Shown here: piece after piece, positions 275 to 55,820 of the stretch
How the letters are laid out: the number at the start of each line of letters is the position of its first letter
How positions within the stretch are numbered: the stretch's first letter is position 1
Assembly: GCA_036172245.1 (NCBI GenBank)
Contig: JAYWIR010000034.1
Span: 744,001 to 808,000 of the forward strand
Reading direction: 5' to 3'
DNA: 64,000 bases
Source: Raillietiella orientalis
Taxonomy: Eukaryota
Translations under genes and position numbers: made by a program
The notes under the pieces: model-generated
Told to the model about the DNA's origin: nothing
The model's database searches: none
The model's input: only the letters and a program-made list of their open reading frames with translations

Positions 275-1868
<1,594 letters not shown>

Positions 1869-2149
1869 CTAAATAGCGAGGTTATTTCATAAATTAATGC
1901 ATTAGCTACTAATGCACCGGAACTCTTGCTAATTAAAGCATTATTTCAATTAATCCATTATTAATACGATTCCATGTATGCAACACTTTAAAAATCAATT
2001 CTAAATTGTTGCTTCAAATTATTATTTGTGAGATTTATTTTGTGAAATCTGTGAAAATGAGTATTTTCAGCCTGCAGGTGGTGTGCTTATTTATAACAAT
2101 GGAATTTTCCTTTATAAATATTAACTTAAGAATAATCTCTAGAAAGTTT

Positions 2150-3150
2150 ATTGTTTCACAGATGGATGCCAGAGTTAGGAAAGTAGAAGAGTATGAGGGG
2201 AAAATATAATGGGAAATCTGGCTAAAATTTACTTGAAATGTTTCTTAAGGCATTTTCTTATGAGTGATATAAGGTAATATATGAGGTGATAGCTTTGGAA
2301 CAAGGATGATAGTCAATGCTAATCAGGAGATGAATAGAGGGGCTAGTTTTTGTCATGTTAGTCATGTTGTCATGATGGTTGACAATCATGATGAGTTAAA
2401 GTCATAGTGGAAGGGTAATATTCCTAACTGTTGAATTATGATCAACAAGGTGGACGGATATAGAAGGCAAGGGAGGGAGTTAAAGGAGATACAGGTGAAC
2501 AGGAGGATTAACGATAATACTATTTGAACGAGGAAGTATTTCATTGTATTTGGATTGAAATTAGAAGGGTCTTAGAATAAAGCTATTTTTCATTCATTGA
2601 GTCTCACAAAGTAATTTTCACATGCATTTCTTTCAAGAGAGCTATGAAAAGTGCTTTTCAGATTATGTGCAATTATTTCAAATAAGATCTGTAAAAATCC
2701 ACATATATTAAAGAGCGTTTTCTTATATAAAACTTTAAAATGGAAAGGTTTAAGCTACTTCTCTGGAAGACCATCCTTGGAAAACTTTACTTTCTTTGCT
2801 TAAAGAAAAATTATCATCCGAATCTCTTGAGACAGATACATTTGCATAATTTGTTAAGTCTCTCTCTCTAAATTTATGCATCCTTTCAGTTATCGATCAT
2901 CAGCTTTCTTGCAATGTTCAATTTATTGCACTGTTAGATGTAAATTCCATTATAGATCAATTACAATGGTACTGCACTCCAACACTTTCATATAATTAAC
3001 AGTCAGTACATATACTGACTATAGTTCAGGGATAATTGATAAATTCAAACACGTCCACTTTCATATCATATACGAAGTATGCAGAGCATTACAAATAGGG
3101 GCCATACAAAGTCTAATACATCAGTGAATAATGCACATACGGAAAACTGA
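2150..3150 (-). mobile_element. Possible highly decayed non-LTR retrotransposon (LINE) fragments
   Basis: Broken, frameshifted minus-strand reads faintly resemble LINE ORF2 motifs (PISL..K and the C-terminal KLE.LQRK..GM..L..ERL..L block). No open frame. Confidence 0.25.
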
Positions 3151-3241
3151 AACGGATTGTTTTTGGATTAATTTTGTTCTGTTCTGGAACAAATGACATT
3201 TCAAACAATTCATTACCTGTCATTAATGAATCATAAAAAGT

Positions 3242-3310
3242 CACACACACACACAGATATACATACATACACACATACATATACAGACATATATAGGTAG
3301 GTAGGTAAGT
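3242..3310. repeat. Compound microsatellite (CA)n/(CATA)n/(TAGG)n
   Basis: cacacacacacacagatatacatacatacacacatacatat...aggtaggtaggtaag seen directly. Confidence 0.85.
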
Positions 3311-5010
3311 ATGCAGGTATATTTGATCACCAGTTGTATTCTTTGTGAGAATGCATCATTAGATTTTCGAATTCATTATCCCAGAGTAAAAACGAAACGA
3401 AACTTGAAACGAAAATTCTTTACCAATATCATTATAAAAACTTATTCAGCTTTCTTTTATAAGCTTTGGGTGTCATACGGTCAAAAAAATGATACTCAAA
3501 CAATGTTCTGTTCTGTCTCCCACAGTCTCTGATCATTCCTGCGAAAGTGTGAAAGATGCATAAACAAGCATTTTGCAGTTCATTCTTGTATCTTATTACA
3601 ATCAGGATGTCCCAGTTTTCAAAGGTTTCATCTCATTCGGAAATCTGCCCAAGAAACTTCAAGAGAATTTTCATTGTACTTAAGTGCTAATAATCTTGCA
3701 ACAAGCTACTTTCATTGTCAATTATTTTTAAATTTTCAAATAGTTCAACTATTTAAATCTTGCATACAGAATTTATTGGCGATTTAGTGTCCTCGAGTTC
3801 ATGGCACTTTCGTACGTGCAGATTGGAGGACCGATCTATTATGATCTAATCTGAAAGTTTTTCAACAGTGTCCACGGATCTCTTGAGAATTGTTAAAATA
3901 CTCGAGTAACATGACACTTATTGAGTGATACAGCCAGATTGTTGACATCAATTTTGAAAATTACAGTCGTTTCCTTCTTTGCTGGAGATGAACACACTCG
4001 AGGAAGACCAGACGAATGTGCAAAAAATCTAAGTAGAGCAATCTGATGAAATATTACAAATATATAGACTCCAATATATACGTTTAGTCGCAACCATGAT
4101 CACTGAAAACGTTAATTTTTATGAATGTTACATTAAATTTCTTGGGACATCTCTCACAAATTTGATAATGAAAGCTGATGGATAAAAAATCTATCTTTTA
4201 ACATATCTCACATTTCTGAAGAAAATGTCTCCGAAACATTCGCTGGTCATTGGCCATTCATTTTTGATTCATGACATCTACAGCTGTGGTTTTTTTTTTT
4301 TAGTGAGTGGGGGGGGAATGATTTTTTTAAAGGTGCATGGGTGTATTTTGAAGATATTGATAGTGATTGTTTGTTAGTTTGTATTGAAATTGGTATGTTT
4401 GCAACATATTCTAAGTGAGAACGAGGGCGTAGATGTTATGCTCATCTTCGTGCTCACATACAGATACATGCCTAAGAATGCAATTTGTCTTTGAAGGAGT
4501 AATGCCTACTTGTGGACCCATTTTATGAACGATCTGATTTGAATAAAATGTTACACAAAGTGTGAATACTGAAAAACGTGAGATGAACATACTGCCTTCT
4601 GGAAATCACCGGTAACATGTATGAGAAATGATCGTGTCAAAGGTGCGACACTGTCAACGCGGTAATGTGTAATGTGGCCTAGAAACTTAATCAAGCACAC
4701 TCGAAAGGGAGGAACAACTTTTCAAACGATAATTTGGACATATGAAAACGATAGTACAGCTTAAGATTTTCTGTTTCGTTCCAAGATTGAGCATAGCTGC
4801 CTTTGTAGTGTCACGGTTAAGACGAAGAATTTCGGCCATTTCTTGTGTACCAGTCATATTTGCAAGTGTTTCGCTTTGATGCAGTGGTCTGATTTCTTGA
4901 AAGTACACCCGTCAGTGGAATTTACAGTTGATTTGTACAATTGAACATGAACGTAGGTCTAAGAAATCAGTTTTGAAATTGCATTAGAAAAGCAACAAGA
5001 TTCTCTGAAT

Positions 5011-6490
5011 ATGAAGTGTTTTGATTTTAAAAGTTTGTGCTTATTTTGTGAGTAAAGCAGCTCACTTAGAACATGCTCTGTTTAGATGAAAAATATTACC
5101 CCGGTGCAATTTCCGATTTTTTTAATGGAGTTCAAAAATCCAGAAATGTTTCGAGCAATAATGAGATTTCGAAAAAAACACCGATTAGAGACGCAACACC
5201 CAAAGATATCAAACCGAAAGTTAAGCATGTTTCTCTAGGTGAAGGAAATCGCAAAGTTCGGTATTTAAGAAAGGAACTGACGAACTCCGACTCCACAGAT
5301 GAATTCCGAACTGTCTTTGTAGGCAACATACCACTGACCGTTAACAAACAAAAGATTAGAAAATTATTCAAAAAATATGGTGTTGAAACAATACGATGCA
5401 AATGTAAGCCACAAATGCCAAATTCATCAAAAAAGTTAGCGAAAAACAGGTACTGGTCGATCGTATCTTGTGCTGATTATTACTTGCTGTGGTATTTTAA
5501 TAACCATTAAAATTGTGCATGCTGCAAAAGTACTTGCATTCTTACTGGGTTACTAGAAAATTAAAATCCCGTTTCTAACTTTTTGTCTCTGCACACCAGT
5601 TCTCATCAATCTTGTTTGCATAATCACCAGTTTTTATTCACCGTTTTTAGCACATCAACTGACTGTCAGCAGTGCACTTTTTCAGCATATATCAAATTTG
5701 TGTCACGTGAAGCAGCCTTAGATTCACTTGAAATGAATGGATTTATAGTGAATGACTTTCACTTACAAGTAGATCTTGCTGAAAATAGCAAAATTCATGA
5801 TCATCACAAAGCTGTATTTGTTGGCAACTTGTTACTAGGTGACTCTTGAGTGCTGCAAAATTTCAGTCTTATTTGTATTCTTTAGAGGCAGAAGAAGAAA
5901 AATTACGTGCTCACTTCTCTGAATGTGGATCCGTTCACTCTGTTCGGATTATAAGAGATCCAATCACGAAAAAAGGAAAAGGATTTGGTTATGTGAACTT
6001 TAAGGTAATTAAAAAGGAATAACAGTTGATGTAATTGTATACAGAACTGTGACAGTGTTGAGTTGGCTTTGCAATTAGATGGTACAACGTTTGAAGGCAG
6101 ATCACTGCGCATACAAAGATGCAAAAGCCAACCAAAGCTTAAAGTCAAAAAGAAGTTGGACAAAAATTCCAAGATTGAATCAACATTTCATAAGAATCAA
6201 TCTGCAAATGAAGGTTGCAATAGGAAAGGCAAACTAGTGTGCATGAAACCAAGCACTTATGATAACTGCCATATAAAGAAACCTTCACAAAAAATGCAAA
6301 AAAAGTCTGACTTTTCAGTGTCTGGTTTAAATGCGTACATTGGGTTTCAGTCAACAAAAGGGACATGCCCTAAGGTGAGCAGACATGTTTATTATGACCA
6401 AAGATTTTGTATTAATAATATCTTTAGAAGATGAGAATCACAAAGTTGGCAAAAAAGCAGCGTTGGATTGCTGAGTTGCTGAATAAATGA
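5011..6490 (+). CDS. RBM34: RNA-binding motif protein 34 (Nop12-like, two RRMs)
   Basis: N-terminal YYPGAISDFF; RRM1 RTVFVGNIP...AYIKFVSREAALDSLEMNG...LQVD; RRM2 AVFVGNL..EAEEEKLRAHFSECGSVHSVRIIRDPITKKGKGFGYVNFK..DSVELALQLDGTTFEGRSLRIQRC. In-phase introns 5450-5650, 5839-5885, 6005-6044, probably 6375-6427. Start uncertain (5011 via intron 5048-5085, or 5073); end 6490 if the last intron is spliced, otherwise 6434. Confidence 0.88.
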
Positions 6491-8793
6491 CAGAATACGA
6501 CTCCAATCTTTTCTGTCTTTCTTGTTCTAAGTTCTTTGTTTTCTGCCACAGGGATTCATTGAGTTGCTGTTGGCCATAACTGAGAGCTTGTAGGCGAGCT
6601 AACTCTAATAAGATATGCAACTGTTCAGCTCCGTATTTCTTATTATGCTGCCTCTCCTGCACAAAATCTTCTTGGATTATGAGTTGCAATGGTTCAGAAA
6701 TAGAAAATGTATTCAGGCGTGCTTTTGTCAAATAAACACGAAACAAGTGCAACAAGTTCGGGAACAGCTGAATGTTTTCCTGTGATCCATTCTGCCAAAT
6801 GATGGGAAACTGCACATCACTCTGAAAAACTACATTATAAAAATTTCAACCTTATGCACAAGAAGCTTACTCCTAACATACTGCGTCCTTCAGACAAAAT
6901 TAATACCAGAAGGTTGGTGTCATAGTCCAATCTGTGAAACTGAAAATCATAATGCAACTTTTGCCACTGAATAAGATCTTTGAGAGCTGCTACATTCTGG
7001 ATTCCTGTGTATCATCAGAGCTTGGGCACAAAATCTATTTACTACCTTTTTGGTTAAGTTGACCTGGTTCCATCTGTGTCTCATCCAAAACTAAATGGGT
7101 TCCAGAACTAAGTTGTAGTAATCCTTCTCGTAGTCTGTTGGTGTTGTAATCTTTGCTAAAAACTCTCAGTCCATTTATTACGTCTCAGATGCTCACCAAG
7201 GTATTAAGTGTGCTGTATTCAAAGTGTTCAAATTCAAAGAGAGAAAGGAACTTCTATCCACCAGCTGTTGTATAACCTCGTATAAACTAGCTGCAAATTT
7301 CTTGCTTTTAATACCACAAATGTTGAGTGCAAATTTGCCAAGAATAGTGACATTCTTATGGCTGTGACTAGAAAAAAGCTCGAACATTCCTTTACGAAAT
7401 TGTCTCACATGCTGGAGAGGAGATGACACAATAGGTATTCAGCAGCACAGGAGTCATCACAGAGCAGCCTTTGTAGCAAACAAACCAATTCAAATCGAAC
7501 TTGTTCAATGGAGTTCCCATCTTGTGGAAAAGAGTTTTAGCATACTTGAACCAGAAACTCACCTGGAACTGGAGTAGGTATGGAATCAACATAAGGATTA
7601 CAATGCATAAAAGGACATGTGAAGAGAACATGGACTACAGGAAGTAAATGATCTTGAGCTTCAGATGAATCACATAGATCCTCTAATGGAGGCATACATA
7701 AGATGCCAATGAGATCAATCAAATCATTTAATTTCCAGCTGGGATCATTGTCATAAACCTACAAAACTGACTACTATTTCTGTTTGAAGACTCACTTTTG
7801 CAACACAGCTGTGAACTTCTGGAAATGCTTGCAGTTCCACATCCCTAGAGTCACTGGTATCAGTCAGTCTGTTTTCACAGTCAAGACGGGGATGTTTTGA
7901 GTTACTGAGGCCAAGACTGTTAGAAGTAATTTTTCTCTTGTGTGTTTGCTGCAACATTTCCTGCTTTTCCACTTCATCTATTTACAAAGCTAAGGATAAC
8001 AGTCATTTCATAAAGGATATCTGTTTAGTCCATTCATTTCTTCCAGGCACAGAAATGCACACAAAACTATACCGCTGCTTAGTTACCATAGGATCCATAA
8101 ACTGGGCATCTGTGACCTGAAATACTATTATAAAATAGCTAAGTCTCGAAATTTGAGTACCTCATCATTTAAGATATCCCGAAATCTTCCTGTCTTCTGC
8201 CTTACACCACCTGCATTCTTCTCTGCTACGTTATAAACATCGAGAAAATACTCAGGATCCAGCATGTCCTGAATCATGCCTTGGAATCTCACAAGCTGAT
8301 GTTGTTTTACATGTTCACCTGTGGAACCTAGATTTAAATATGGAACCTAGATTTACCAAATCAAAATACTGAAATAAAAATATTGTTTAAATACTTGTCT
8401 CAGTGATTCCGAAGAAAGCTTCTCCGCGAAAAATTCCGTAACTCCCGTCTCCCAGCCAACTTTGCATGATATGGCATCTGGAACATTCAACATTCAGTAC
8501 TAGTTTACATCATAAAATTGTAGCGCTTGCATCAGCGCACAAAATACAGATTTTGCTAAAATAGAGGATGACTGATATCAACACATTAAAAAAATGAAAA
8601 CTGCCACTATTAAATGAAAACTTGATTCTCATTTCAGGTGATTAGTTTTAACAGTTGGTCTATAAAATTTTAAATTATTTACGAAATTTTTGATACTCTT
8701 GGAGCAGCTTGGAGTGACACTGTCCACACTCTTACCAAAAATATTATCAATGATGGTCAGTGGGCAATTGATCCAACTAATAGCAGCTGGCAT
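6438..8793 (-). CDS. MCMBP: Mini-chromosome maintenance complex-binding protein
   Basis: Spliced translation: [105 protein letters not shown], all matching remembered MCMBP blocks. Exons include 8793-8736, 8477-8395, 8346-8161, 8116-8021, ~7975-7796, 7758-7563, and from 7520 onward. Confidence 0.93.
7976..8020 (-). other. Putative U12-type (minor spliceosome) intron in MCMBP; 3' boundary uncertain
   Basis: Phase-0 donor CAG|ATATCCTTT at 8020; read-through hits TGA five codons later; branch-like TCCTTAGC at 7996-7989. Confidence 0.7.
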
Positions 8794-11700
8794 TTTCCCG
8801 CAAAATAACACAAATTCAAAACAAGGCTGCCATCACTAATTTTCATTTATATAGTTTAATAAACGTGCACAATAAATACAGCAAAGTCGTAATTCGTGAA
8901 TTCAGTTTTTTTTTATTGCACAAAAAGTTCATTTTTAAATAATTTGAATTTTCAGTTTGATCAGGTATACAAACAATTTTCATTTGTAGAACTGAAATAA
9001 GTTTATTTCAAGAATTTCCAGATAAGACGATTTGGGGAACAAACGAGCTTCAGGTAAAAAAAAAAAAAAATTCAGTCTCATTAGAACTCATTTATTGTTC
9101 ATTTGATATGTTCTGAAACAGCGTTCATATTAAAGATTCTTGATATCCTCATCTTATGATTTATCTTAAATGCTACTGACAAGTGTGCAAAATCTGTTGG
9201 GATCCCATTTCGAATGACCTTTATGTGCTTAAAAGTATTGAGAAATGTGTGTCTTTTCATATCATAAAATCCATTCAAAGGAAGAACGAGGATAGCTGAA
9301 GTCTGCGATGGCAATTTACTGGCATTGTATTTTTACGATTTTCCAAAGAATCCTTGGAATCATCATTTACATTCATCAGTTTATTCTAACCACAAATAAG
9401 CAATCAATAAGCGAATATAGTTATCATCAGAAAACACTACAAGATTATGTCAGTGCATATGAGAATTACAAAACATTTAGAATCCTATAATCTGAATATA
9501 AGGGAAGATATAGTCTGAAAATAAGTTCCGTCATTGTTAGGAAATAGTAACAAAAGGATTAGCGACTGAAAAGAGATTATTGCATTGTGAAAGCTGAAAT
9601 TTTCCTCTTTTAGGATGCTCTTACTATTTATTATTACAAGATTGCTACATTATGAATTACCAAATTAAGGATCACTGAATTTATAAGATATATAGAGTGA
9701 CATCAATAAAAAAATAAATCAGAATAACTGGTTAGAGGAAATCCCAAACAGAACAAAGAATTCTTTTACGTCTACAAAGTGCACGATAAATTAAAATAGC
9801 ATACGAATCCTTCTTCATGGATTTTCAGCATAATTTTTTGATGTACTTCACATTTCTCTTTACGGAATTTCGGGTATTAAAGTTCTTTTTGCTGTTAGAA
9901 CACTTTTCACTATTCTTAATCTGTCTAGGATTTTTGGCAGAGAGCTGCAGAATGTGAGGATTTCCAAAAATTATCTCATGACACATATAAAGAAAGTTGG
10001 GCGTGATATAGCCTCTTTCATAACGAGATTTATCGTTCTTGTTTTTTTCTTCACGAATACTCTCCCCCCAAACGATGAGGGTAAACGAATTCGATAGTCT
10101 CTGGCTCCAAGAAGACTGTGAATTCATGATTCCTGCTTTATAGAAGGGGAGTCTCTATAATCAATTGTATAGAGCCATAAGTTTATTAGGTTCATTACTG
10201 CTTGGATGAGTAGTAATGAGAGATTATCTGCAAGTCAATCTACAGTTTGAAAGCAGCTCGTTTGTAAGTAAATAAAGGATATCTTCATTTAGACTTACTT
10301 TCTGTCTCTAGGAGGAAATTTCCCTCCACCTACATTAACAATTTTGAAGTAAAACAGCAGAACAATAGCGAAACCGTTCAGCTGTGGAACACAAGTCAAC
10401 TGGAGTGTACTTTCTGCAGTGCTATGCCACAGAGACAATCATTGCACTGAAATTGTAGAAAGACTTGAATCCTTAATTCCTGAAGATTTCTTGATAGTGA
10501 ACTCCTCATCGAAAGTGCATTATTTGTCCTCTGCTTATTCCAGACAAAACTTATATTGAGGAAATCAACTTTTAATCCTCTAATCAAATATCACAACCGA
10601 TGATTGTTTACGTTTCCATCTTTTTACCAAAGTACATTCTCGAAGTATTCTTATTCAAAATGAATGGAAAATCTCAATGAATCAAAAAAGGAAATCATCA
10701 ATAAACGATTTTAAAGTAACACTGTATCATACGAACTGATGAATATGAACGCGATTTGATTTCTAGATGCTTCTACTGATGGAGCTACCACAAATAAGCT
10801 GGAAAGAAGGATCAGAATAAATAATAATGAATGACGACAGTATCTTCAAAGGCCGACCACAATAATGATATAGAAATTATAAATGACGGAAAAATGAAAT
10901 GATGTATTGATGACAAAATAATGCATCGATATACTAAATTAATTTTCAATTCCCGAATTCTAGCGTTTTCGACATTCATTATCATACTTGCTCCAAATGC
11001 GCTTCCTTACTGACATGACACTAAAAGTCAGAAAGCTGTTTATTGGCTCATTACTTCGTTTGTCTTCGTGATCCTGTGAGCAGGGGTTGCACTATTTGAG
11101 CGGCTCGTTGATCTTCGATCTACCTAGCGAAAGTTGTATCATGACGCATTTCCTTCTCTCATGCAATCCAATGGATAGAGAGATCCTCTTGGACAGATGT
11201 GCTATGAGTAAAAGACATTCACTCAAATCTCTTCGAGATTGTCAGTATTTGCTTGTTAACTTTCGAGTGAAAGAAGGGTATGCATATGTAGAAAAGGCAT
11301 GTCTCTGAATATTATAAGATCGCTTTTTCCGACGTATTCACTTAAATTTGACGAATAGTTTCTTCCTCATTCGTCGGCTTTGCAGATTTGCTCCATTGCA
11401 AGTGAGTCTCTTGTCATAATGTTGTGAACACAGTCTGTATAATTGTTAAAGCTGATTTTCACTGTCCACTACCTAGTACAGTTGCAACTTTGTCAAACTC
11501 AATGGATCTTAAAATTATACTGTAGATAACAGGCGATCACACTTGGAGATGCAACCATCTGAAATATTTCTATCACATCGAATTCCAACTTTTATTTTCG
11601 CTAGCGTATTTTTATTTTGAATTCTAAAATATTTAGAGTCCAAAATAAAAATAAATCTCTAAAATAGAGTCTCTAAAATATTTAGAGACTTGACAATCAT

Positions 11701-12920: not shown

Positions 12921-13703
12921 ATGTACAGGAAATATATGAAATTACTGGATAATTGGCCCATTGATCCTACAAAAAATAACAGGTAATTAGATTTTGTTCA
13001 TATGGAAGAATGTATAGGTGTGAGATACATTGATAAAGGATGAAAATAAGATCACATTTCTGTTTGACTCAGTTTCTGTATGAATTCAGTTGTGAGTGAT
13101 TTCTTAATTCATGTTGTGCAGTTAACAAATTTTTCATTATGGTTGTTTCAGAACGGTAGAGTAACATGAAATTTTCAAGATTAACGTTAAATAATTTTCT
13201 TGAAATATGTCAGCATCAGTAGTAGTCTCTTTTGTCAGTAGCAGCTGTAGTAGTGTATCAGTAGCATTCTCATAGTAATTTTTATACTTCGTGATTTTTC
13301 AAAATTAATACTTCAGTTTCCTTGATATGATTCCTTACTGTTCCCAAAATGACTAATGTTTGTTGTACTAAGAAATTTTTTACAAAATTGGAATTTCAGG
13401 GATTTAAGTGCCTATTTGAGAAAATTTGTTGTTGCAAAATTCCGTGATAACAAAGAGAACAAAATAGATTTGGCTGGATGTGAACAGAATTATCAAAGTT
13501 TGCTTCGTATTTCCACAGACTATTACTTGAAAAAATATCCATGCTTACATGTTTCTGGAGCATTGGGTTTATCCTATGATGATTGCAGATACATTAATTC
13601 TACTAGCACCTTAGAAGCCTTGAACAAAAAGAGAAAGCTTTTTAGTTGGCTTACAGAGAAACGGAAACATGAACCAGTGAAAGACTCACCCATAGAGGCA
13701 TAA
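12921..13703 (+). CDS. UQCC2: Ubiquinol-cytochrome c reductase complex assembly factor 2 (Cbp6 ortholog), 2 exons, 121 aa
   Basis: Exon 1 12921-12982 (MYRKYMKLLDNWPIDPTKNNR), GT-AG intron 12983-13399, exon 2 13400-13703 (DLSAYLRKFVVAKFR..CEQNYQSLLRISTDYYLKKYP..GLSYDDCRYINSTSTLEAL). Parallels human UQCC2 ([52 protein letters not shown]). The ORF track shows only exon 2 with a false start. Confidence 0.9.
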
Positions 13704-13708
13704 CTAGG

Positions 13709-14737
13709 ATGTGTGGTCTGTATTTTAAAAATTGTCTTCAAAGACTTCATGTACCTGTTATGGCAAGAGAAGTTGTGGAAGGTTTGCAAATAGAGCCTAA
13801 AGGGACATACATAGATATGACATTTGGTGCTGGAGGACATACCAAAGCCTTGCTTGAAACTGACAGCACTATAAGAATAGTTACCATGGATAGAGACCCA
13901 GTATCCCATAAGCTGGCCAAAAGTCTTCAAGAAGAAGTGAAGCATCAAGTGATCCCATTAAAGGGGAAATTTAGTAACCTTCCTGCATTGTTGGATGAAA
14001 TTGGCATTTTTCCTGGTTCGGTGAATGGTTTTATTTTTGATTTGGGGTGCTCTTCAATGCAGCTGGATCAAGCAGAAAGAGGATTTTCTCATACTAAGCC
14101 AGGCCCTTTGGATATGCGTATGGACAATAGTGAAGACTCATTAACAGCTGCCGATATTGTTGCATATTGTGAGGAAGATTACTTGGCAAAAATCTTAAAA
14201 GCGTATGGAGAGGAAAGAGCTTCAAAGAAAATAGCACGTGCTATAGTAGAGAGTCGGCACATGTTGGGAAAGCTGAAACTAACAACAGAACTATCAGCAT
14301 TGGTTGCCGAAGTTTTAGGTTACAAGTATGGTTTAGATATGCTGGCGAGACCTGCTCATGTAGCAACTCGCACTTTTCAAGCATTACGAATGTTTGTTAA
14401 CAATGAAATTAATGAGCTTTCCTGTGGAATGGAGTTGGCATACTATTACCTGAAAGCCGGAGGTCGTATTGCAACCTTGTCTTTTCATTCCTTGGAAGAT
14501 CGTCTTATTAAACAACACCTCACAGGACCACAGGGTTGTATTTCCTCATCATCTCCACACGTTGCATCTCAGTGGAGAAGTCCCACTACATTTCATGATG
14601 AGGAGAGTATGAAGATGGTGATGAAAAGGCGCTGGAAACAGCTTCACAAACATGTGCAATTGCCCAATGATGATGAGGTGGCCCAGAATCCACGTTCCCG
14701 TTCAGCAAAGTTAAGAATAGCCGAAAAGTGTGATTAG
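13709..14737 (+). CDS. METTL15: Mitochondrial 12S rRNA m4C methyltransferase (RsmH/MraW family), intronless
   Basis: HVPVM, YIDMTFGAGGHT, DRDP, FDLGCSSMQLD..ERGFS..GPLDMRMD, YGEER, ATRTFQALRMFVNNE, SFHSLEDR, NPRSRSAKLR: the full RsmH/METTL15 motif set. Confidence 0.96.
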   Translation: MCGLYFKNCLQRLHVPVMAREVVEGLQIEPKGTYIDMTFGAGGHTKALLETDSTIRIVTMDRDPVSHKLAKSLQEEVKHQVIPLKGKFSNLPALLDEIGIFPGSVNGFIFDLGCSSMQLDQAERGFSHTKPGPLDMRMDNSEDSLTAADIVAYCEEDYLAKILKAYGEERASKKIARAIVESRHMLGKLKLTTELSALVAEVLGYKYGLDMLARPAHVATRTFQALRMFVNNEINELSCGMELAYYYLKAGGRIATLSFHSLEDRLIKQHLTGPQGCISSSSPHVASQWRSPTTFHDEESMKMVMKRRWKQLHKHVQLPNDDEVAQNPRSRSAKLRIAEKCD

Positions 14738-15338: not shown

Positions 15339-18300
15339 AGTTTATGGAAAGATTAAAGTTTTTTCTCTAAACACTGCAGTTTTTCAAAAGATTGCGTTTG
15401 CGAGCAGATCCGTGTATTTCTGAATACTACGGCAGTAGAATCATGCAAAAATGGGTGCATTCATCCAGTGGGTTCATCCGTCGTCATCAAGGTTCCATCG
15501 TGATGCTGCCTCTTCGATTCTACGCTAAAGAGAGGACTCGTGGGATCCACATTGGGAGCGATGCGATGGCATGCACCTGAATCCTGCATTTGATGCTACA
15601 TCCTGCATGTAGGATCGTTAGTCTCCTTTTGATATAGACAAACTCTGCATCTTCACAAGAATATTTGCTTCTGTAACGCAAGAAGCTTTCTTCAAGTTGT
15701 CCGAAGAAAGCAAAAATAATAAAAAAATAAAAAAACGGTATTGTGTTTTGTGTTTCTCTTTAGTCGCCGTCTTCTCGGATGCCATCGAATGGCATCCGAG
15801 GAAGTCTAATCCAAAAGATTCGCCGTAAGGTCTAATCCAAAGGATTTGAGGAAACTGGGAAGAGAGAGAGAGAGACAAAAAAAGCAATCCTTTAATTTCT
15901 AATTTCCACAGCAAAGTGTAGCATAATTGTCTTCGGTGTGTAGAAATGATGTGATTTTCCTATTCTGGCACCTGTGGATTGCAAAGGCATGAAAGCAAAT
16001 CTTTGTATAAGTGCTTTTGCAACCGATGGCGTAGGAAAAGTGTTTGCTTTCAGGCGTCTAGAATTTCTCTTCCGTCTAGAAGTCGTTCTATCGTAAACGA
16101 TTCCTTGTTCTATATTATTGTTATGGAGCGTTAATAGAGGGTTATTTTGAAATTTGTGCTCCCCACAGGCGGGGTGCTGACGTATCTATCCGTTCGTTCG
16201 TTCTTGCAGCATCGTACTTACGAATGTGGAAAAAAACTTGGAAGATGTCTGCAAGGATTTGAACTTTGGGGCTCCCCTTTTTGTAGATTTCGGTCTGCTT
16301 CTCCTCCCTCATTATTTTCCCTGTGTTGGCAGATGTTTTCTTCATCCCTGCTTCGTGATCTATTCTTCCGCCTCATTTGCTTTGATTTCTTATTTTGTTT
16401 AGCGCCTGTTTGGAGAGGTACTTTCTGCGCGCAAACGATGGATCATTTTAATTTTATGAAATGGACTGAGGCATCTTTTGGTGGTTTCATGCATGCAGTA
16501 AATCAAAAAGTTTCTCTGTTCTGGGCGGGATCGAAGAGGCCCGCTAGCTTGGTTGAGAAAGAAATGTAGATTTGATGTCATCCTCAGTCCAATTTTTCTT
16601 CCCCGTTTCCCATGTTTATGAAATAGCCTTCGATCAATTAAAGCGAAAGAATTCTTTTTGGTGCGGATCGTTTCTTTGCGGTACTTGCCCGAGCGTTCAA
16701 GAGTTGGTCCAGATTCACAATTGGCCATTTGTTTCCCGAGTAGTGATTTTTGCGCATGGTCGTAAGAAATCATCACCATTATGCTGAGTGACCGGGTCTT
16801 TATTCTTTTGTACAATGTGATTTACAGATCACGACTTACTCCCGTGTGCCGGTTGTAGTTTCTTTCTTTCTTAAACCACTCGGCTGCACTCTCGGTCAAA
16901 CCGTTGGAAAATCTCTCCGTGGTTTCTTGAAGTTTTCCGTGGATTTCTCTTCCGGTCGCGTGATTTTCTCAAGTTGTGGCTAAACACGTTTTCCTATGGC
17001 GTGGTCCGCTTCATCCCGTTTTGAACACCCGTTTCCCCCTCCACCTTGGTTCAGGACGGTGATGTCGGCAAACGGAACGAATCCGCTTTTCCGTCATTGC
17101 CATTGCTTCCGAACACTGGACGTGTTGAGCTTTCCTTTCGTGTCGACGCAAGCGTTTCTCGGTGTCCGCGGTTCCCTTGCGCATCACCGTAAATTTCGTT
17201 GCTGAGGTCTCCGTGCACAGGATTCCCGGTCAGCACGCTTGCCTCGGAGAACGGATTCGCCTGTCGAGGGGACCAGCCTCCCGTGCCGTCGGTTTTGGCA
17301 TCGGGACCTCCGCGAGTTTAAAGTCTCTCCACGTCGGCGGAGTCCCAGAGGTAGGAGGCAGGATAAGCCGCATCTCCATCGTCGTGGAGCTTGATCAATT
17401 CCCATTCGTTGGGAGTGCGTCCGGCCGTTGGCCTGATGCGATGCTCGGATGCTCCGCGATCCGCTCTGCTTTTCTGATGACTCGGAAGCACTCGGAGTAC
17501 ACGAGTCTTGCAGCAAGAAGATGTTGGGCTCAGAGGTCTGCTGCTGGTCATGTGGGTCGGATCTTTCTTCTCGCTTCGTCTGACGGTGCCCCACTCCGAC
17601 GATTCGCGTGCGTGCTATCTTCGCCCTTATTCGGGTCGTCGTCGCGGCTGCTTTCCGAGTGTTGCTGATTTTCGGTATCGAGGAACGGACGGAGGCGTGC
17701 GAACCAGAAATGGGACGAAAGGCAGGGCGACCTGTCGGACCTCGCTCGGTGGCGACCGAAGCTCTTCGCATCTTGGCCGGCAAACAAAGGAAGGTCTGGG
17801 AAGGAAGGTGCACGGCTTTCACGCACGCACCCGCAGGCTTCCTAGACCCAGCTTCGCAATTGCAAAAGTCGACTGGCGTAAGCCGCATTTGACCGTTCTC
17901 TTCCGAACGAGACGCGCGAGGAGCGGGAGCGGACACTCCCGGATGTGTCTCTTCGTCCACCTTCCTGTACGTGTGAAGGCGAAGACGAAGACTGGTGGCA
18001 TCGTCTGGGGTCCGAATTGCACGCGTCCCCGTCGTTGGTGCCCACTACAGTGGCGACTCGAACAGAAGGAACGGAATAGTTCCTCCCGACCTTCCTGTGG
18101 AGCTCCGGATTCGGGGCGACGCCAGGAAATCGCCGACGAGCTTTTGCTCCTCCGTCTCGCTACCGTCTCCCCTGCCTCCAGCTAATCCTGTTGGAGGCAA
18201 GCCTGGAGGCCTTTGTGTGGCCAAGGCACGCTTCCCTCGCACGCGCTCCCGTCTGCGGAGTCGTCAGCGACCACTGAGACACCTGCTGGATTCGTCAGCC

Positions 18301-22549: not shown

Positions 22550-23330
22550 GAAAAATAAAATCTTCTTCTCTCCTTAGGATGATTCCCTCCTCCCTCTCGC
22601 CTGCGGCCTCCTCTCCCGGGGAGGGAGCGGGAAGGGACGGTTGGGGGCGGTGGAAGGCACACGAGCTTGGCAGGATGGGCTGGGGGCGCCGTCCCCCGAG
22701 AGTGGTCCTGCGGGGACTTTGGAGCGGGGGCGGCGGCGTGGACGGGTGGGCGGGCGACCGCGGGATCGGAGGCGTTGCTGGGAGACCGATTCGCGGGTGA
22801 ACTGGGTTGGGACGGACGCGCTCCGCTCTTACGTGCGTGTGTGTGCGTGCGTGCGTGCGTGATTTCTCAAGAGCTTGCGGAAGACGGGCGTAGAGGGTGG
22901 GGCGTAGGGGGGGGGGGATCTGGAGGAGAAAGAAAAAAAAAATTTCGCTCCCCCCGTCCTCCCACTCCTCCTGGAGATGAGAGAAGAGTGGAGTGGGGGG
23001 CGTGACGTACCTCCCGTGACTAGAAGAAGGGCGCGCGCGCGCCCGGAACCGGCGTGCTCGCCTCCCCGCCGTGCGGTTTCTCCGGTAACGGGTGGCGAGG
23101 GTGGACGGGGGTGGAAGAGGGGGGCGGAAGGGGAGGACATGACTAGTGCGTTACTCGGGACGACTGCGGCCAGGAGTGGGGAGGTGGGGAAGGGGTTGGG
23201 ACGGGGAACGAGGGTCCCGCGGGTCGAAGGCACGGCGTGTGCTCCTGGCCGCTCTCGGCGTTGCGGGGGAGGACGTCGTGGAGGAGAGGACGATGGCTCG
23301 CATCCCATCCGAACCCCTGGCCTCCCTTTC

Positions 23331-25916
23331 TCACTCCAGCTGCTCCAAGAACGATGGCGCCTTGAAGTACTCGGGGACGGCCTCGTCCAGGCGGGCGATG
23401 ACCTTGTAGATGGACTTCTTCCAGGAGGGCTCCTGATCTTTCCCCGAGGCGATGGCGCTGTAAAACTCCTTGACCGTCTGCTCCATGACAGGGCAGAAGT
23501 GAGGGGGCACCTGCGAGGGAGTGCGTCCGTGAGCCCGCGGATCCGTGAGATCCCCTCCCTACCTCGATGTGGTTGTTGCGGTTGTAGTGCAGGTTGAGGA
23601 CTTTGAAGAGCTCCGAGTCCGCGGTGACGCGCAGGGCCGCCTCCGGCTGCTGCGCGCCCTCCACCACCGCCTGCCGGGCGAACTTCTCGATTTGGATGTA
23701 GTAGAACTCCCTGCGTGGGACGGGGGTGTAAGGGGGTGGGAGAGGAGGGAGAAGTGGACTACTCACCGGAAGTTGGAGAACCATTTGACCAGCTGGGCCG
23801 TGTTGTTCTTGTTGAAGCGGACGTCCGGGAAGTAGGTCTTAAGCACGGAGGAGCTGGGGTAGCGCGTCCAGAAGAACATCAACTTGGCTTTGCGCAGGTG
23901 CATGGGGGTCAGCGTCATGGACGCCTGGGGGCCCCCGTCGTAGGCCGATACCTCTACTCCAGGAGGTGGGTCCGCGTCCGGTTCGCTCTTGAGCCCGGCG
24001 AAGAAGCCGTCGGGGGACTTGCCAGGGGGGCGATGCATCCCGTGGAAGGCCGCGGCGGCGGCGCCGATCCCGTCATCACCCTGGTGAGAGCGGCCCGGGC
24101 GGAAGGCCGGGTAGCGGACAAACAGCTCCGACTGGTGCAGGCTGGGGTTCGGGATGGCGACGCTGGTGGGGAGGGGTCCCGGAAGCAGTCCCGGGGGAGG
24201 GTAGCGGGGCCGGGAGCATTCCTGGTAAGCGGAAGGAGGGGCGACAGGAGAAGCGGCGGCAGGAGAGGGTCCGTGGCAGCTGCGCGAGGGCGCCGCCGCC
24301 GCGGAGGGTCGGCCCGCGACCAGGCAGCTGTGGTAGTCTGCCACCGGGACTGCGTCGCCGCCCCCGTCCGAGAGCCTCCCGCCGCCCAGCCTCTGGACCA
24401 TCCGCGCGTCCGTGACCTTCGCTCGCTTCCTCCGCGGGCTCATCACCAGGCTGAGGGCCTCCCGTTGCTCCGCGTCTGATTCAATTTCTAGACTGGAAGC
24501 GTCCTGGCTGTTGGCGGAGTCGAAGGCGGCATCCCAGCAGTACTTGGCGCTTGACACCGGTGGGGAGTTCGCCGGGACGACGATGCGCCCCCCCTCCGGA
24601 GGAGACGTCCTGCGGATCCGGAAGCCGTTGACTGGGAACCTCTGCAGGGATTGCCTCTCCTCTCCCCGGGCGGCGCCGGGATGGCCGTCCCTGCCGCGGG
24701 CCAGGTAGCGCCCGACGACGGCGTCCACGAGCGACGACAGGGACGCGGCAATCTCCCTCTTCAACGCATCGGCCAGGTCGTCGGCGACCGCGCCCAGGTC
24801 CCTTCGGAAGGCGTCCTCCTCTCGGCGCTTGACATCCGCAGGGGGCATCGGCAGAGACGGCGCTCGCTGCTGCTGCGCCATGATGCGCTGGGCCAGGTTC
24901 AAGAACTGCCGTTCGGTGAGGGCCCCGTGACCATTGCGGGGCACCGAGAAGGGCGGCGTCAGAACGACGCCCCTGTCCTGAGACAGCGGCGTTTTCCGTC
25001 GGGAGAGGTGCTGCTGCTGCTGCTGCTGCTGCCGCCGCCGGTTCAGCCGCCGCCTCTGCCGCCGCTCCTCTTCCTCTTCGCGTTCTTCTTCTTCATCCAC
25101 GTCTTCCTCGTCCTCGTCGCCTTCCTCTTCCCCCGCTTCCTCCCTCTCTTCGTCTTCAACGGGGTCTTCCTCCTCCTCGTCCGCTTGGTCTTCCTCTTCC
25201 TCCAGTTCCTCCTCCTCGTCGTCCATGGCGTCCTCATCCTGGCGCCAGGACTGCCTGGGTAGAAGTCGCCGCTTCCGGCGCCTCTGCTGCTGCTGCTGCT
25301 GTCTCGCGGAGCACATCTCGTCGTACCTCCTCCGCATTTCAAACAACTTTTCTTCCATCATCTTCAGCTGGGATTTGAATTCTCCCTCGTCTAGACGGTG
25401 GACCGGGGGCCGGCGGGCGCCCATGTCGTGCTGGACCGGGAGGTAATGCTTCCTCTTCTTGCAGCCTCCCACGCCCGCTGCCGCCGAGCACATGCTGCTG
25501 ACGATTCCCTCCACGCGCAGCTTCTTGCAGACTTCTTCTTCCGCGCGCGGGGGTTTCTGCAGTTGCTGTTGCTGCTGTGTAGGAGGGAAAGGAGGAGGAG
25601 GAGGAGGAGGAGGGGTGGAAGAGGAAGGAGGGGGCGGAGGGGAAGGAGGAGGTCGCTCTTCGCCTGCGGCGCCTTCTTCCTTGGTTTCTTGCGCCGCCGC
25701 TGCTGCCTCGGCCGCGGACCCTACCTGCGCCCTCTCTTCCACAGCCGTCGCTTCCTCTTTCTTCGCGGGCGCAGGGGATGGGCCACATTGCTCCTCCTCT
25801 TCCTCCTTCTGGACGACCACTGGAGGGAACTTTTTCTTCTCCAGCATCTCCCGGAGGAAGTCGCCGCCGCCTCCCTTCTCGAGTGCGGGCGGTGGCACCT
25901 CACATGCCGTCGCCAT
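23331..25916 (-). CDS. pros: Prospero/Prox homeobox transcription factor, copy A (~825 aa)
   Basis: Exons 25916-23767, 23710-23563, 23510-23331 (GT-AG introns of 56 and 52 nt). Homeo-Prospero domain [100 protein letters not shown]-terminal motifs [39 protein letters not shown]. Start Met inferred; an upstream exon is possible. Confidence 0.96.
25007..25660 (-). repeat. Coding trinucleotide/low-complexity tracts in prospero A (poly-Q, poly-E/D, poly-P)
   Basis: (CTG)n and (GGA)n/(TCC)n runs on + translate to [19 protein letters not shown]... and PPPPPPP. Confidence 0.85.
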
Positions 25917-26145
25917 GGGGGAACGGAGAATGGGGACCGACGGGAAAACCGGGTGGTGCTGGTGGCGGCGGCAGAGGTTGCTGCTCCTGTTGCTCCTCGC
26001 GGGAACCAGGTGGCGCGTGCGCTCGCGGGAGCTCTCCGGACGGCAGACGCGAACCCACCACCACGCGCGCGCAGACTGCCTCCGCGCCCGCTCCTCTCCG
26101 CGATTCATAGCTCGCGGACGGACGCGCCCGGCAACGCCCCGACGG

Positions 26146-26179
26146 GTGACGTCACGCGTCGTCCCGGCCGTCTTATTGG
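26146..26179 (-). promoter_or_regulatory. Putative proximal promoter of prospero A: CCAAT box plus palindromic CRE
   Basis: CCAATAA (26179-26173) followed by CGTGACGTCAC (26156-26146), ~230 nt upstream of the inferred ATG; same arrangement upstream of copy B. Confidence 0.55.
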
Positions 26180-50460: not shown

Positions 50461-52732
50461 ACACGCGGCTCTCTTCTCTTGAGCATTTTTTTTTTTCTCG
50501 GCAATAAAAATCTCACGAGTTTGTAGGTGAGGCATTTGGATTTCTGTCCTGCATTTTATAAGTGGGAGGAGGCACCTGAATCCAAAAAAACAAGGCGTGT
50601 GCGGTGTGTGCGCACGCGCGCGCGCGACTGCAGCGCAAACCTCCCTCCCTCCTTTGAACTCCTTCGCCCCTACTCCTTACCCATGCCTCTTACCCCTTTC
50701 TCAGACAACGGCGTCTGGGGAAAGAGCATCCTCTCGCTCGAGGAGGAAGGGGGTGGTAGACAAGGGACCATCAGGAAGAGAGAGCGCCGTAAATCTGCCG
50801 ATTCCGCGTTGGTCTCAGGAGAGCAGTCCCTCCGGGTGAGGGAAGAGCTGCTTCTGGGGAGTCCACACCAAGAGAATCTTCTTCGACTGTGTAAGGAGGA
50901 CGCGTCTGGCAGCCCCGAGACTGCGGAGAAGTCGCCCCTGAACTCGCGCAGGAGGGCGTCGGGTGCTTCCGGCACAGAGCGGTGGAGACGCGGACTCCAT
51001 GGACCCCAAGACAGGAAGAGAGAGGGAGAGAGGAAGGGGGGGGGGGAGAGAAAGAATTAGATCCTTCCCGAAAGCGCGCGCGGCATCGTCACGGGAGAGA
51101 CGCCTCCTCTTCGCATCTGCAACGCTCGTGCCCTGATCATTAGCGGGAAGCCATCCGTCAGCCGCCGTTGCCGAAACGACCATTCGACTCTCGCAGACGC
51201 CTTCTTTGTTTGTTTGTTTGTTTGTTTGCCGTCATGGCGGGAACCCCTTCTTCCTGTTGATCGGGGGTTGCCGTGGTAGCGGTAGCACAAGAGACGCCAC
51301 GAAGTGGTTTTTCTCAAGCATCTCTTTATCCCTCTGTGCTGTGATTTGGAAAGGGGGATCTAATCCTCCTCCTCCTCCTCCTCCTCTTCCACCCTATTTC
51401 CAGTCCAGGCGGGGTCGGTTTGTTTGTTGAGGACCTACTTGTGGGGAGTGCGGCAGCGACAGGGGCATCCGCAAGGGAGGGATGGCGCTGGCCTCATCGC
51501 GGAGGGCTGACGAGAAGCGGAAATCAACGCGCCTCTTTCCCTATGGTCTCCAGCATTTCTCCTCGGTCTCTCTCTCCCCCCCCCCCCAATTCCCTCGCGA
51601 CTCGCCTGCTCCCTTTCCTTCTTCTCAAGCCCCGCGCTGTCCCGTGCTCTCCCACGCGACGCGACCTGGGGATTATAGGACCGCAGCGGCCCTTCCGGGA
51701 GCCGCTGGGGTCCATGAAAGCTATCCGCCTGGCGCGCCGCTGCTTCTGCGCCTCTCCCTCTTCGGATGCCGAGGAGCGAAAGTCGGACGTGCCTCCTGGG
51801 AAGGATGGACTGGAGGTGCGCGCGCTCCCGGAAGTCGCGAGGAGATCGGGAACGCTTTAGAGCGGCTCGTCTTTCGGACCGCGACCGGGAGCAGGCGATG
51901 CATCCGCTCGGGCCGCCATCATCTCAGCATCCGGACCTCGTAAAAAAAAGAAAGGAAAGCTTCCCAGGAGGGTTCCCAGGGCAGCCCCCGGTCGAATTCC
52001 TGGTAGGGACCGTGGGCCTGCAATAGGCCGAGGAACCACTATAAGATGGGTCAGAGGAAGGGAAGGGCTGGTCCCTTCAGCCAGCCGGAGGAGGGCAGGG
52101 AGACGAGGAGTCAGCGGCGGCGGCTTCCGGGATCAGGCCGGGAAGGAAGTCCTGAGCGGAGGCGACCAGACATCGGCGACCTCTCTGGAAGGGCTAAGTT
52201 TTCAACTAGCAATAATCGTGGCTCAGTCGCCTTCCTCGCCTACGATACTGCCCGTGCGCAAGGGCGAAGGGCGAAGTGGGTGGGACGTCGGAGTTGCTTC
52301 TTTCCCTGTGGGCGCGGCTTTCTGAAGACGGCCTCCCGGTGCTGAGGGAATGATGGGGCAGCGCGCTGCCGCCTCCGCGGTTGGGACGAAAGCGGGAGGC
52401 GTAGAAGGTGCTGAAGGGTGAACGGCAGCAGCAACTGTGCGCGCGCGAGGAGTCGCTGTGGGGTCTTGACCAGGGTCGAGAGTCTCCTGCGGAAGGGAAG
52501 AGCCGGGAGTGCTGCTTTGGCACCGCCCCGTGCCGGAGCTTCGGCGACGCCATGCTGGAAGAACCTCGTCGTCCATCCTTAGGGAACAGAAAGGGTCCAC
52601 CCCAACCTCCCCTCCCTCCTTCCCGCAACCCTGCCTCGCTCCTTTCCTCATAGACAAGGAGGAAGGGGAACGCGGGACCCTAGGGCGCGCGCGACCCAGA
52701 AGCACCTCGTGGAGGTCGCAGGTGTTGCTTTT

Positions 52733-53388: not shown

Positions 53389-55820
53389 TCACTCCGCCTC
53401 GTCCAGGAACGACTTGCTCTGGAAGTAGTCGGGAATGCTCTCGTCGGAGCGGGCGATGATCTTGTAGATGGACTTCTTCCAGGAAGGCTCCCGGTCCTTC
53501 TTCTCGAAGATGACGTGGAAGAACTCCTTCACCGTCTGCTCGACGACCCGGCGGAAGCTCTCGGGAGGCTGGAGGAGAGCAAGGGGAGGGGGGTAAACGG
53601 GCGCCAGCGGGGAGACAAGCGAGGGGTGGGGGCGACGGGCTTCCCAAGCTGTCCTCCCTTCCCTCCCGCGCGCACGCGTGCCCGCCCTCAGGAGGGCGGT
53701 GGGCTCGCTCACCTGCACGCAGCTGTTCTTGTTGTAGTGGAGAGTCAGCGTGTGGAAGAGGTCCGACCCCTCGGCGACCTGGATCCTGTCCGGGCTCTGG
53801 ACTCCTTCCCCGACGAGCTGGCGGGCGTGCTTCTCAATCTGGATGTAGAAGAACTCCCGGAAGTTGGAGAACCATTTGATCAGTTGGGCGGTGTTGTTCT
53901 TGTCGAAGCGCACATCTGGGAAGAAGGACCTCAGAACCGAGGAGCTGGGATAGCGCGTCCAGAAGAACATCAGCTTGGCCTTGCGCAGGTGGGCAGGAGT
54001 CAGCGCGGAGGAGTGGATCTGGAGTTAAGGAGGAACCGACCAACCGAACGCGCTGCGCGTGCGAGGACTAGACGGGGAGGGACAGAACGGGAGTGGAGTG
54101 AAGGAGGAGAGGGAAGAAGCAGGAAGAGCCCCCTTTTCGCATTAAAGGATATTGATGGCACCGCGTCGTCCTCGAAGAGCCGGTTCCTCTTCCCGTTCCT
54201 GCAGCAAAAAGGATCTCCAGAGATGGCCTGCAGGAAGTCCTTGTTCCCTCGTGGGGATCCTCCGTAGACGGGAGGCGAATGGAGGAATCCTCCCAGGGGC
54301 GATCCGGGTGAGCTGCGGATGAGCCTGGCCGCACCTCCCAGCTTCGGGTATCCGTTGATCGGCTCGTCGAGGACGGCTGGGAGCTGCTGCTGAGTCTGCG
54401 CGTGGGCCGCCAGGGCGGCGCCCTCGACACCAGCCAAGGACATCCGGAAGGGCAGCCCCGACTTGGGCGTCAGCCTCATGTCCGTCACCTTATTGCGTTT
54501 CTTTGGAGTGACGACCAGACTGAGGGCTTCTTCCCTGGGGTCCGCGGCTTGTCCGTCGGAGCCGCTGTCGTAGTTGCTCATCGGACTAAGCTCCGGCGAC
54601 CTCCAGCTGCCGAGACAGCATCCGGCGAAGCCGCCGCCCCCCTGGGGGGAGCCCCGGGGCGTAGCCTGCCTGTCTTCGGCCGGCAACAGCAGGGGCGGCT
54701 GCTGCTGGCGCCGCCTGTCGCAGTAGAAGCCGCCGGCTCCCTCGTCGAAGGCGCGCGCCGCCACGGCAAGGCAGCACCGCCGGCTCGGAGACGGCCTGCC
54801 CTCCGACCTCGGCGCGAAGTCGCCCTCCGAAGAGGGGCGGCGCCGCCGGCGCTTGGGGAGCTCCTCTCCGAGCTCCCGGAAGTACCTCGCGACGGCGGAG
54901 TCGATGAGCTCCGTCAAGGAGGCTGCGATCTCAGTCTTGAGGTATCGGGATAGGCTCCGGAGGTCGCACGCGGCGGTCTCCAGGGAGTCCCTGCGCTCGG
55001 TCTCCTGGAAGATCCTCATGGTTCTGCCGCCACCGTCGCGCGCAGGCGAGGAGGGGGCCGCGGCGGCGGCTTCTCCGTTCTGGTGCAGCCAGATGGCCGC
55101 CGCGGGGTCGGCGCACCCGTCCCCCCCTCCTCCTCCTCCCTTCTTCGGACCCGCTCTCTTGAAGGTGTCGCTCGCAACGCTTCTCCTGCAAGGAGAGCGG
55201 CGGCATCTCGCGTCCTGGGGTGGTAGTCGGTCCGGGGACCGACGGGACCCGGAGTACCTTTTCTTCAGCAGCGAGAGGTGGTCTTCCATCAGCTGCAGTT
55301 GGCTGCGGAAGTACTCGTCGTCGTCCGCCTGCCGCCGCCGCCACTCCTCCTCATCATCATCATCATCGCGCCTCGACGACGCGTCGTGCTGAACGGGCTG
55401 GTAGAGCTTCCTCTTGCGGCACCCCCCCACAGAAGGAGAGCGCGACTGGGGGGCGGCGGCGTCCGGCAGGCGGCGCTCCAGCAGCTGCAGAAGCGCCTCC
55501 TCCCTCTCGGGGCTGCCGCCGGTGGTGTCCTTCGCCTCGGACTTGGCCGCCACCAACTTCTCCGCTCCCGCGTCGTCGTCGCGTTCCTCCTCGACGATGT
55601 GGAGACGAGGGAAGTCGTCGGACCCGGAGTTGTCGCAGTCGTAGGCGGCAGCTCCGCTCTCACCCTCGACAACCCCGCCGCCACAAAGGTGCCGCTTGAC
55701 TTCCTCCTCCTCTTCTTCCTCCTCCCCCTTCCTCGTCCCTCCTCCCTTCTTCAGGTCGTCGTCGGCATCGGCAGACACCTTCGGGTGGCTCCTGGGGACG
55801 CCCGGAGCTTCCTTAAGCAT
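53389..55820 (-). CDS. pros: Prospero/Prox homeobox transcription factor, copy B (~715 aa, more divergent)
   Basis: Exons 55820-54153, 54012-53713, 53568-53389. [89 protein letters not shown]-terminal motifs [38 protein letters not shown]. Start Met inferred from the TATA position. Confidence 0.94.
54013..54152 (-). other. U12-type AT-AC intron (140 nt) in prospero B
   Basis: Donor TCA|ATATCCTTT (54152-54144), branch site TCCTTAAC (54031-54024), acceptor CCAC| (54013). Phase-0 removal restores the frame into the homeodomain. Confidence 0.92.

Follow-up and report, generated by a model that had tools for sequence, protein, structure and literature searches.

The MCMBP gene on the minus strand of the window, the 64-kb stretch of DNA analysed here, raises the question of how its message is read past an in-frame stop codon that lies just beyond a conserved exon, and of what kind of intron carries that stop away. 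The gene model (Table 1) was anchored by homology at the protein level. Five of the six exon-bearing ORFs tested against Pfam matched PF09739 (MCM_bind), three scoring above the curated cut-off of 25.6 bits and the other two, at 20.7 and 20.8 bits (E ~2e-4), falling short of it, and the sixth, the ORF of the variable linker encoded by exon 4, had no match. With the last MCMBP exon as a query against 1.84 billion representatives we obtained 302 relatives, the best of which were only 44-47% identical; alignment of the 63 full-length ones by tblastn gave coverage from about 8493 to 6441. A homologous-protein search that used the exon ORFs as queries at 'longer' lengths returned no matches. Eight of the introns are clean, in-frame GT-AG introns (48, 44, 37, 42, 41, 41, 41 and 49 nt). 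The remaining intron, between exons 3 and 4, is the subject of this analysis.

Table 1. Positions in the window of the MCMBP gene, of the signals around its intron between exons 3 and 4, and of the control intron in the PROX-like gene.
Feature	Position	Strand	Description
MCMBP gene	6438..8493	minus	10 exons, 9 introns; begins with ATG at 8493, last base of the stop codon at 6438
Exon 3	8021..8116	minus	96 nt, 32 aa, phase 0 at both ends
U12-type 5' splice site ATATCCTTT, A-type	8012..8020	minus	directly after the last conserved codon of exon 3
In-frame TGA within the MCMBP intron	8003..8005	minus	reached by reading exon 3 straight on
Branch-site-like box TCCTTAGC	7989..7996	minus	matches TCCTTRAY at 7/8 positions
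Intron, favoured in-frame AT-AT reading	7976..8020	minus	45 nt, predicted; alternative ends 7982 (AA), 7979 (TA), 7978 (AG)
Exon 4	7796..7975	minus	variable basic/acidic linker
Canonical AT-AC U12 intron, PROX-like gene	54013..54152	minus	140 nt, just before the homeodomain

Exon 3 carries the motif [VIPL]PG..W, which is present in 38 of 150 among the relatives listed, and its 3' end reads ...GTG CCT GGA AGA AAT GAA TGG ACT AAA CAG, with the last base at position 8021 of the minus strand. In all relatives the 60-100 residues that follow W-x-K-x are variable, so that a protein alignment across the exon 3-4 junction is uninformative. The frame of exon 4 is nonetheless fixed, because its ...SCVAK joins VYDNDPSW of exon 5, and the remaining exons are intact and conserved, as judged from the gene model and from the tblastn alignments of the relatives. 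Since a reading that continues straight on from exon 3 runs into the TGA, removal of the intron is obligatory. Among donors from 8023 on, outside conserved exon 3, we found no GT-AG or GC-AG intron that removes this TGA in frame (0 solutions). The first intron base begins a match to the minor-intron donor [A/G]TATCCTT, present here as ATATCCTTT. A preliminary description of the locus had proposed an obligatory intron with a perfect U12 donor, and both the stop codon and the donor bear this out. Introns with a shifted 5' cut, which would have AG-AG or TA-AG termini, were considered by eye and rejected as being without precedent.

The donor is followed, after a spacer of 15 nt, by a branch-site-like box, TCCTTAGC, in agreement with the earlier proposal of a variant branch site near the donor. 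The box has a G in place of the usual branch A and does not belong to the common TCCTTGAC-type variants; A7991, which is intron position 30, could bulge if G:U pairing were permitted. Within the window, ATATCCTTT occurs three times compared to 0.31 expected, a number reached in none of 100 shuffles, and for the combination of ATATCCTTT with TCCTTRRC 5-35 nt downstream there is one instance, compared to 0.00 expected. By itself TCCTTRRC is not enriched (seven occurrences in the window vs 10.9 expected), from which it follows that the informative signal is the pairing of donor and box, and not the box. The pairing of ATATCCTTT with TCCTTAGC is more than chance. The coordinates and counts of the preliminary description were all found to be right, and a further in-frame end, the TA at 7979 (42 nt), was added to those it had listed.

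That MCMBP is a minor-intron gene in other animals had been put forward, and a comparison with the human and mouse rows of MIDB confirms it. File 1 of the supplement to PMC6717393 (Olthof et al., 2019) has MCMBP as a minor-intron gene in both species, with the 5' site ATATCCTTT placed directly after GAA in human and GAG in mouse, in each case a Glu codon; the branch boxes given there are CTTTTCTTAACT (human) and TTCTTCTTAACC (mouse), and the intron lengths, in file 8, are 4143 nt and 4474 nt. The accessible text of a study of patients with RNPC3 variants further reports that the U12-type introns of MCMBP are retained (PMC7612377). The mammalian intron and the one described here thus lie in the same gene and have an identical ATATCCTTT donor, but they differ in length (4143/4474 nt vs ~39-45 nt here) and in the branch box, which contains ..TTCTTAAC.. 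in human and mouse and is TCCTTAGC here. At the protein level, the relatives close their counterpart of exon 3 with W-x-K-[EDQK], an ending that fits the Glu codon in front of the human donor. The human minor intron presumably follows WVKE.

Metagenome contigs, scanned with an alignment of exon 2, yielded 80 loci, 56 of which contain the PG..W motif. An uninterrupted reading, cDNA-like or intronless, was found in 51 of these 56 loci; in three (L010, L072 and L012) the W is followed, at a distance of exactly three codons, by an RTATCCTT donor, and the other two have a GT donor at the same spot, followed by an early stop. By eye, an additional locus, L007, resembles a third GT-donor case. The interrupting sequence in L010 is a GT-AG intron of 83 nt, in which TTCTTGAC is followed by 12 nt, and that in L072 is an AT-AC intron of 322 nt with 10 nt after TACTTAAC; the intron in L012 starts with AT, and neither a branch box nor a 3' end was found within the 662 nt that remain on the contig. 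Two public relatives, P0069 (...WAKD-ISYFF...) and P0143 (...EWQSLYMF...), look as if annotation had read through such an intron. Taken together, the MIDB rows, the metagenome donors at the same position and the relatives that resemble read-through products indicate, on sequence comparison, that this position in MCMBP is an old intron site, U12-type in several lineages.

The window itself contains a second minor intron, which served as a control. It interrupts a PROX-like gene that encodes a Prospero homeodomain (animal); it opens with ATATCCTTT, has TCCTTAAC 121 nt later, ends in CAC after a further 11 nt, and joins ...EDDAVPS in frame to the downstream exon (18 aa). In MIDB, ATATCCTTT is the donor given for human and mouse PROX1 and PROX2, and the donor 9-mer of the PROX1/PROX2 minor intron and of its counterpart in the window is the same as that of the MCMBP intron. 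Unlike the MCMBP intron, however, the PROX-like intron is canonical, with TCCTTAAC and an AC end, and at 140 nt it is three times as long. As evidence that this genome splices minor introns it counts only on the proviso of a non-chimeric contig, and this proviso bears on a sharp change in composition, from a G+C content of 33-40% on the MCMBP side to about 65% on the PROX side, with the step near 17,000. The other PROX-like gene has introns of 52 and 56 nt, as counted by eye, and the presence of tiny introns on both sides of the composition step suggests one organism for both halves. An Rfam scan of the window gave a U4 gene as the sole match.

Where the MCMBP intron ends is less plain than where it begins. 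The assertion that the nearest AG is out of frame, and that there is no proximal in-frame AC, proved correct: downstream of the donor the first AC occupies 7945-7944, with none before it, and 7940 is the last base of the first AC in frame, so that canonical AT-AC or GT-AG termini are absent at a usable distance from TCCTTAGC. The in-frame ends are an AA at 7982 (39-nt intron; 7 nt after TCCTTAGC and 9 nt after A7991), a TA at 7979 (42 nt; 10 and 12 nt, respectively), an AT at 7976 (45 nt; 13 and 15 nt), an AG at 7964 (57 nt; 25 nt after TCCTTAGC), an AG at 7961 (60 nt; 28 nt after TCCTTAGC) and the AC at 7940 (81 nt; 49 nt after TCCTTAGC), each of which leaves an open protein of 544-558 aa. 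The first AG (7978..7979, minus strand) would give a 43-nt intron, out of frame, with a stop at residue 165; it lies 11 nt after TCCTTAGC and 13 nt after A7991.

To judge these ends we used the distance from the branch box, a U12 intron being expected to end some 10-15 nt past its branch A. In the accessible text of PMC3584512, the optimal distance from the U12 branch site to the 3' site is given as 11-13 nt, and 3' site choice is described as error-prone; in the control introns, the spacing from box to end is 11 nt (PROX-like), 12 nt (L010) and 10 nt (L072). By spacing, the best end would be the out-of-frame AG at 7978. Among the ends that keep the frame, the AT (45 nt) would fit the spacing better than the AA (39 nt), since the AT lies one base beyond the range of the controls and the AA three bases short of it. 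The TA has the right spacing, but it places a T at the next-to-last base, where all described classes have an A. The AG at 7978 may be a decoy, or compete with the in-frame ends, or it may be the true acceptor should one base be missing from the assembly just downstream. Use of TCCTTAGC as branch site would require a nearby 3' cut, and the intron would measure 39-45 nt whatever its exact end; on the condition that this box is used, the intron is ultra-short, as had been suggested.

Such a length is in keeping with the surroundings. Introns in two neighbouring genes measure 43, 44 and 38 nt in one and 47 and 40 nt in the other, and all of the 13 GT-AG introns modelled nearby, a set that omits one ambiguous intron of an RRM gene (108-291 nt), fall between 37 and 49 nt. 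A U12 intron of 39-45 nt therefore fits this genome. Introns of this size are also known from a protist: the minor introns of Blastocystis have a median length of 39 bp according to the accessible text of Larue and Roy (2023; PMC10639083) and a mean of less than 42 nt (Gentekaki et al., 2017; PMC5608401, in its accessible part; PMC10639083). They resemble the MCMBP intron in being about 40 nt long, mostly A-type and often in phase 0, which shows that the minor spliceosome can work at ~40 nt. Blastocystis is, however, no animal but a stramenopile, and canonical AT-AC introns make up 77% of its minor set, compared to no usable AC here. Across species, the lengths of minor and major introns are correlated, with a rho of 0.903 (PMC10639083, accessible text), and given neighbouring U2 introns of 37-49 nt, a minor intron of 39-45 nt is what this trend predicts. 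The suggestion that the locus implies a miniaturised U11/U12 geometry was therefore overstated, in view of the Blastocystis median, the correlation and the size of the local U2 introns. A search of the literature for short minor introns found no description of a ~40-nt minor intron in an animal, and the accessible part of PMC13644364 makes no mention of U12 introns.

The non-canonical termini likewise have precedents. Minor introns of the A-type (AT-AN) form a recognised class (CENATAC paper, PMC8280824). In animals, AT-AA is the commonest non-canonical minor end and AT-AT the second, as stated in the accessible text of PMC10639083; counts from four species are 20 for AT-AG, 12 for AT-AT and 8 for AT-AA (Sheth et al., 2006; PMC1557818, Table 2), and the classes rank as AT-AG, AT-AA, GT-AT and AT-AT in Physarum. 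The published AT-AA, AT-AT and AT-AG introns share with the MCMBP intron the AT start and the U12 donor and, as predicted here, a branch box and a non-AC end, but the genomes in which they were described have far longer introns.

We consider it likely that the sequence between exons 3 and 4 is a genuine, ancient A-type (AT-AN) U12 intron, orthologous to the minor intron catalogued for MCMBP in human and mouse, and compressed to ~39-45 nt. Going by established U12 splicing, U11 would pair with ATATCCTTT and U12 with TCCTTAGC 15 nt on, with A7991 bulged, and the 3' cut would fall 9-15 nt past A7991. Because no AC lies 9-15 nt after A7991, a productive cut that keeps the frame would have to take a non-canonical end. 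The reading frame suggests that this cut would more probably be made at the AT at 7976 (45 nt), so that EVEKQ would follow TKQ, with the AA at 7982 (39 nt), which would place IDEVEKQ after TKQ, as the second choice. The AG at 7978, which lies between the two, may sometimes be used as well; the message would then be shifted in frame and reach a stop 38 codons into the fourth exon. Whether the minor spliceosome of an animal removes, as a matter of routine, an intron of 39-45 nt that has just 15 nt between donor and branch box and ends in AT or AA, despite a better-spaced AG in between, is in our judgement evenly balanced. The shrinkage trend, the protist precedent and the classes of ends are already known; the MCMBP intron adds a new case.

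The same AG at 7978 lends itself to a different account, in which the intron is a 43-nt AT-AG U12 intron and the apparent frameshift reflects the deletion of one base, in the assembly or in the individual, just inside exon 4; if, for example, the AAAA run at 7968-7965 really consisted of five A's, the reading would become TKQ-MKWKKQEMLQQ... The distance of 11 nt from the box to this AG equals the spacing in the PROX control and falls within the range of all three controls (10-12 nt), AT-AG outnumbers the other non-canonical classes both in Table 2 of Sheth et al. (2006; PMC1557818) and in Physarum, and the frame after the AG is open for 37 codons. Against this account, the MCMBP coding sequence of ~1.67 kb, with 24 homopolymer runs of at least 4, needs no other frameshift, and a 1065-nt MraW-like ORF (17 homopolymer runs of at least 4) and the PROX-like ORFs, one of 1055 aa, are frameshift-free too. 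In addition, AT-AG combinations appear disfavoured in the accessible text of PMC3584512, and an assembly error on the exon 3 side is excluded by the donor, which sits at exactly the orthologous phase-0 position. We therefore regard a one-base deletion as improbable. Termination farther downstream, in a longer U12 intron ending at the in-frame AG at 7964 or 7961 (57 or 60 nt) or at the AC at 7940 (81 nt), would combine an open frame with the canonical ends AG or AC. These ends lie 25, 28 and 49 nt past the sole branch-like box, compared to the optimum of 11-13 nt (PMC3584512, accessible text) and the 10-12 nt of the controls, no second TCCTTRRC box is found closer to them, and the resulting lengths exceed the 37-49 nt of the 13 neighbouring introns, all of which makes a longer intron very unlikely.

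A minor intron that no longer works as one must also be weighed: the sequence could be a U12-like relic that is removed by the major spliceosome or by an odd route, or the gene could be a defective copy of MCMBP. Vestigial U12-like introns have been mentioned in nematodes (Sheth et al., 2006; PMC1557818), and an example of such a route can be drawn here, with a 5-nt micro-exon (7977-7973) after the AG followed by a 38-nt GT-AG intron (7972-7935); of 17 two-intron solutions, this is the only one whose second intron has the local size (38 nt). We rejected it on account of the 5-nt micro-exon and of its poor signals, since its donor, GTGGAA, and its acceptor, ...CACAAGAG, which is rich in purines, compare badly with those of the 13 local introns. 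A relic is hard to reconcile with a 9-nt donor identical to the human one and with an AT start, which is not a U2 donor, and the canonical AT-AC intron of the PROX-like gene speaks for active minor splicing; a defective copy is opposed by all other MCMBP exons, which are intact and conserved. We hold an explanation of this kind to be highly improbable, and return to a working, compressed U12 intron.

For annotation, a working intron of this kind means that gene finders will break the essential MCMBP gene unless tiny non-canonical introns are allowed; P0069 and P0143 already look as though they had been read through such an intron. If an AT-AT or AT-AA end is true, beside a better-spaced AG that goes unused, the locus would offer a compact natural substrate for the study of 3' site choice by the minor spliceosome. 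In a bolder form of the proposal, the out-of-frame AG would often be used, so that much of the MCMBP message would be destroyed and the intron would throttle this replication factor. The compressed intron, if true, would rank with the shortest U12-type introns on record for Metazoa, at about one hundredth the length of its human ortholog. One ancestral minor intron would then measure ~4 kb in mammals and ~40 nt here, which would support the view that the length of minor introns tracks the general intron length of the genome, rather than the U11/U12 machinery keeping these introns long.

Thirteen GT-AG introns modelled within 448-8493, in three genes (MCMBP, a coiled-coil gene at 448-1868 on the minus strand and, on the plus strand at about 5070-6434, an RRM gene), all measure 37-49 nt, a very narrow spread that is unusually short among animals.

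Positions of U12-type signals and other features in the window
Feature	Position	Strand	Evidence or detail
Third exact ATATCCTTT copy in the window	10274-10282	-	TAA ATG AAG on its 5' side
MraW/RsmH methylase family ORF, 354 aa, without introns	13673-14737	+	PF01795, E 8.8e-84
Second PROX-like gene	23300-26930	-	Homeo-prospero domain, E 1e-25
U4 snRNA gene	52151-52265	-	Rfam RF00015, 57.9 bits, E 2.7e-10
Canonical AT-AC U12 intron, 140 nt	54013-54152	-	ATATCCTTT ... TCCTTAAC + 11 nt, end CAC

The canonical AT-AC U12 intron directly precedes the homeodomain of a PROX-like gene and is the equivalent of the minor intron catalogued in MIDB for human and mouse PROX1/PROX2. About 30 kb away, the second PROX-like gene, which has a 1055-aa exon and two GT-AG introns (56 and 52 nt), lacks this U12 intron because its ORF runs uninterrupted across that site; the window therefore contains two PROX-like paralogues, of which only one carries the minor intron. 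The third copy of the donor-like 9-mer lies within an apparent GTAAGT...TAG interval, no branch box was found 3' of it, and no gene was recognised in the surrounding region.

G+C content is 33-42% over 1-16 kb and 58-68% over 17-64 kb. The upward step, at about 16,000-17,300, contains neither N nor a tandem repeat and marks an isochore-like boundary or else a join. Nothing in the window matched Rfam apart from the U4 snRNA gene, which is in the GC-rich part. Judged by its family, the methylase ORF presumably encodes the type of enzyme that methylates the small-subunit rRNA of animal mitochondria.

In the deposited models of two public MCMBP relatives (P0069 and P0143), a U12 intron at the MCMBP site seems, from the protein sequences, to have been translated through, giving the stretch …WAKD-ISYFF… in P0069. 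Among three metagenome MCMBP loci with a U12 donor at the same codon position, the intron is GT-AG and 83 nt long in L010, AT-AC and 322 nt long in L072, and of AT-start form in L012. We conclude that the subtype of the intron has switched between lineages at one site.
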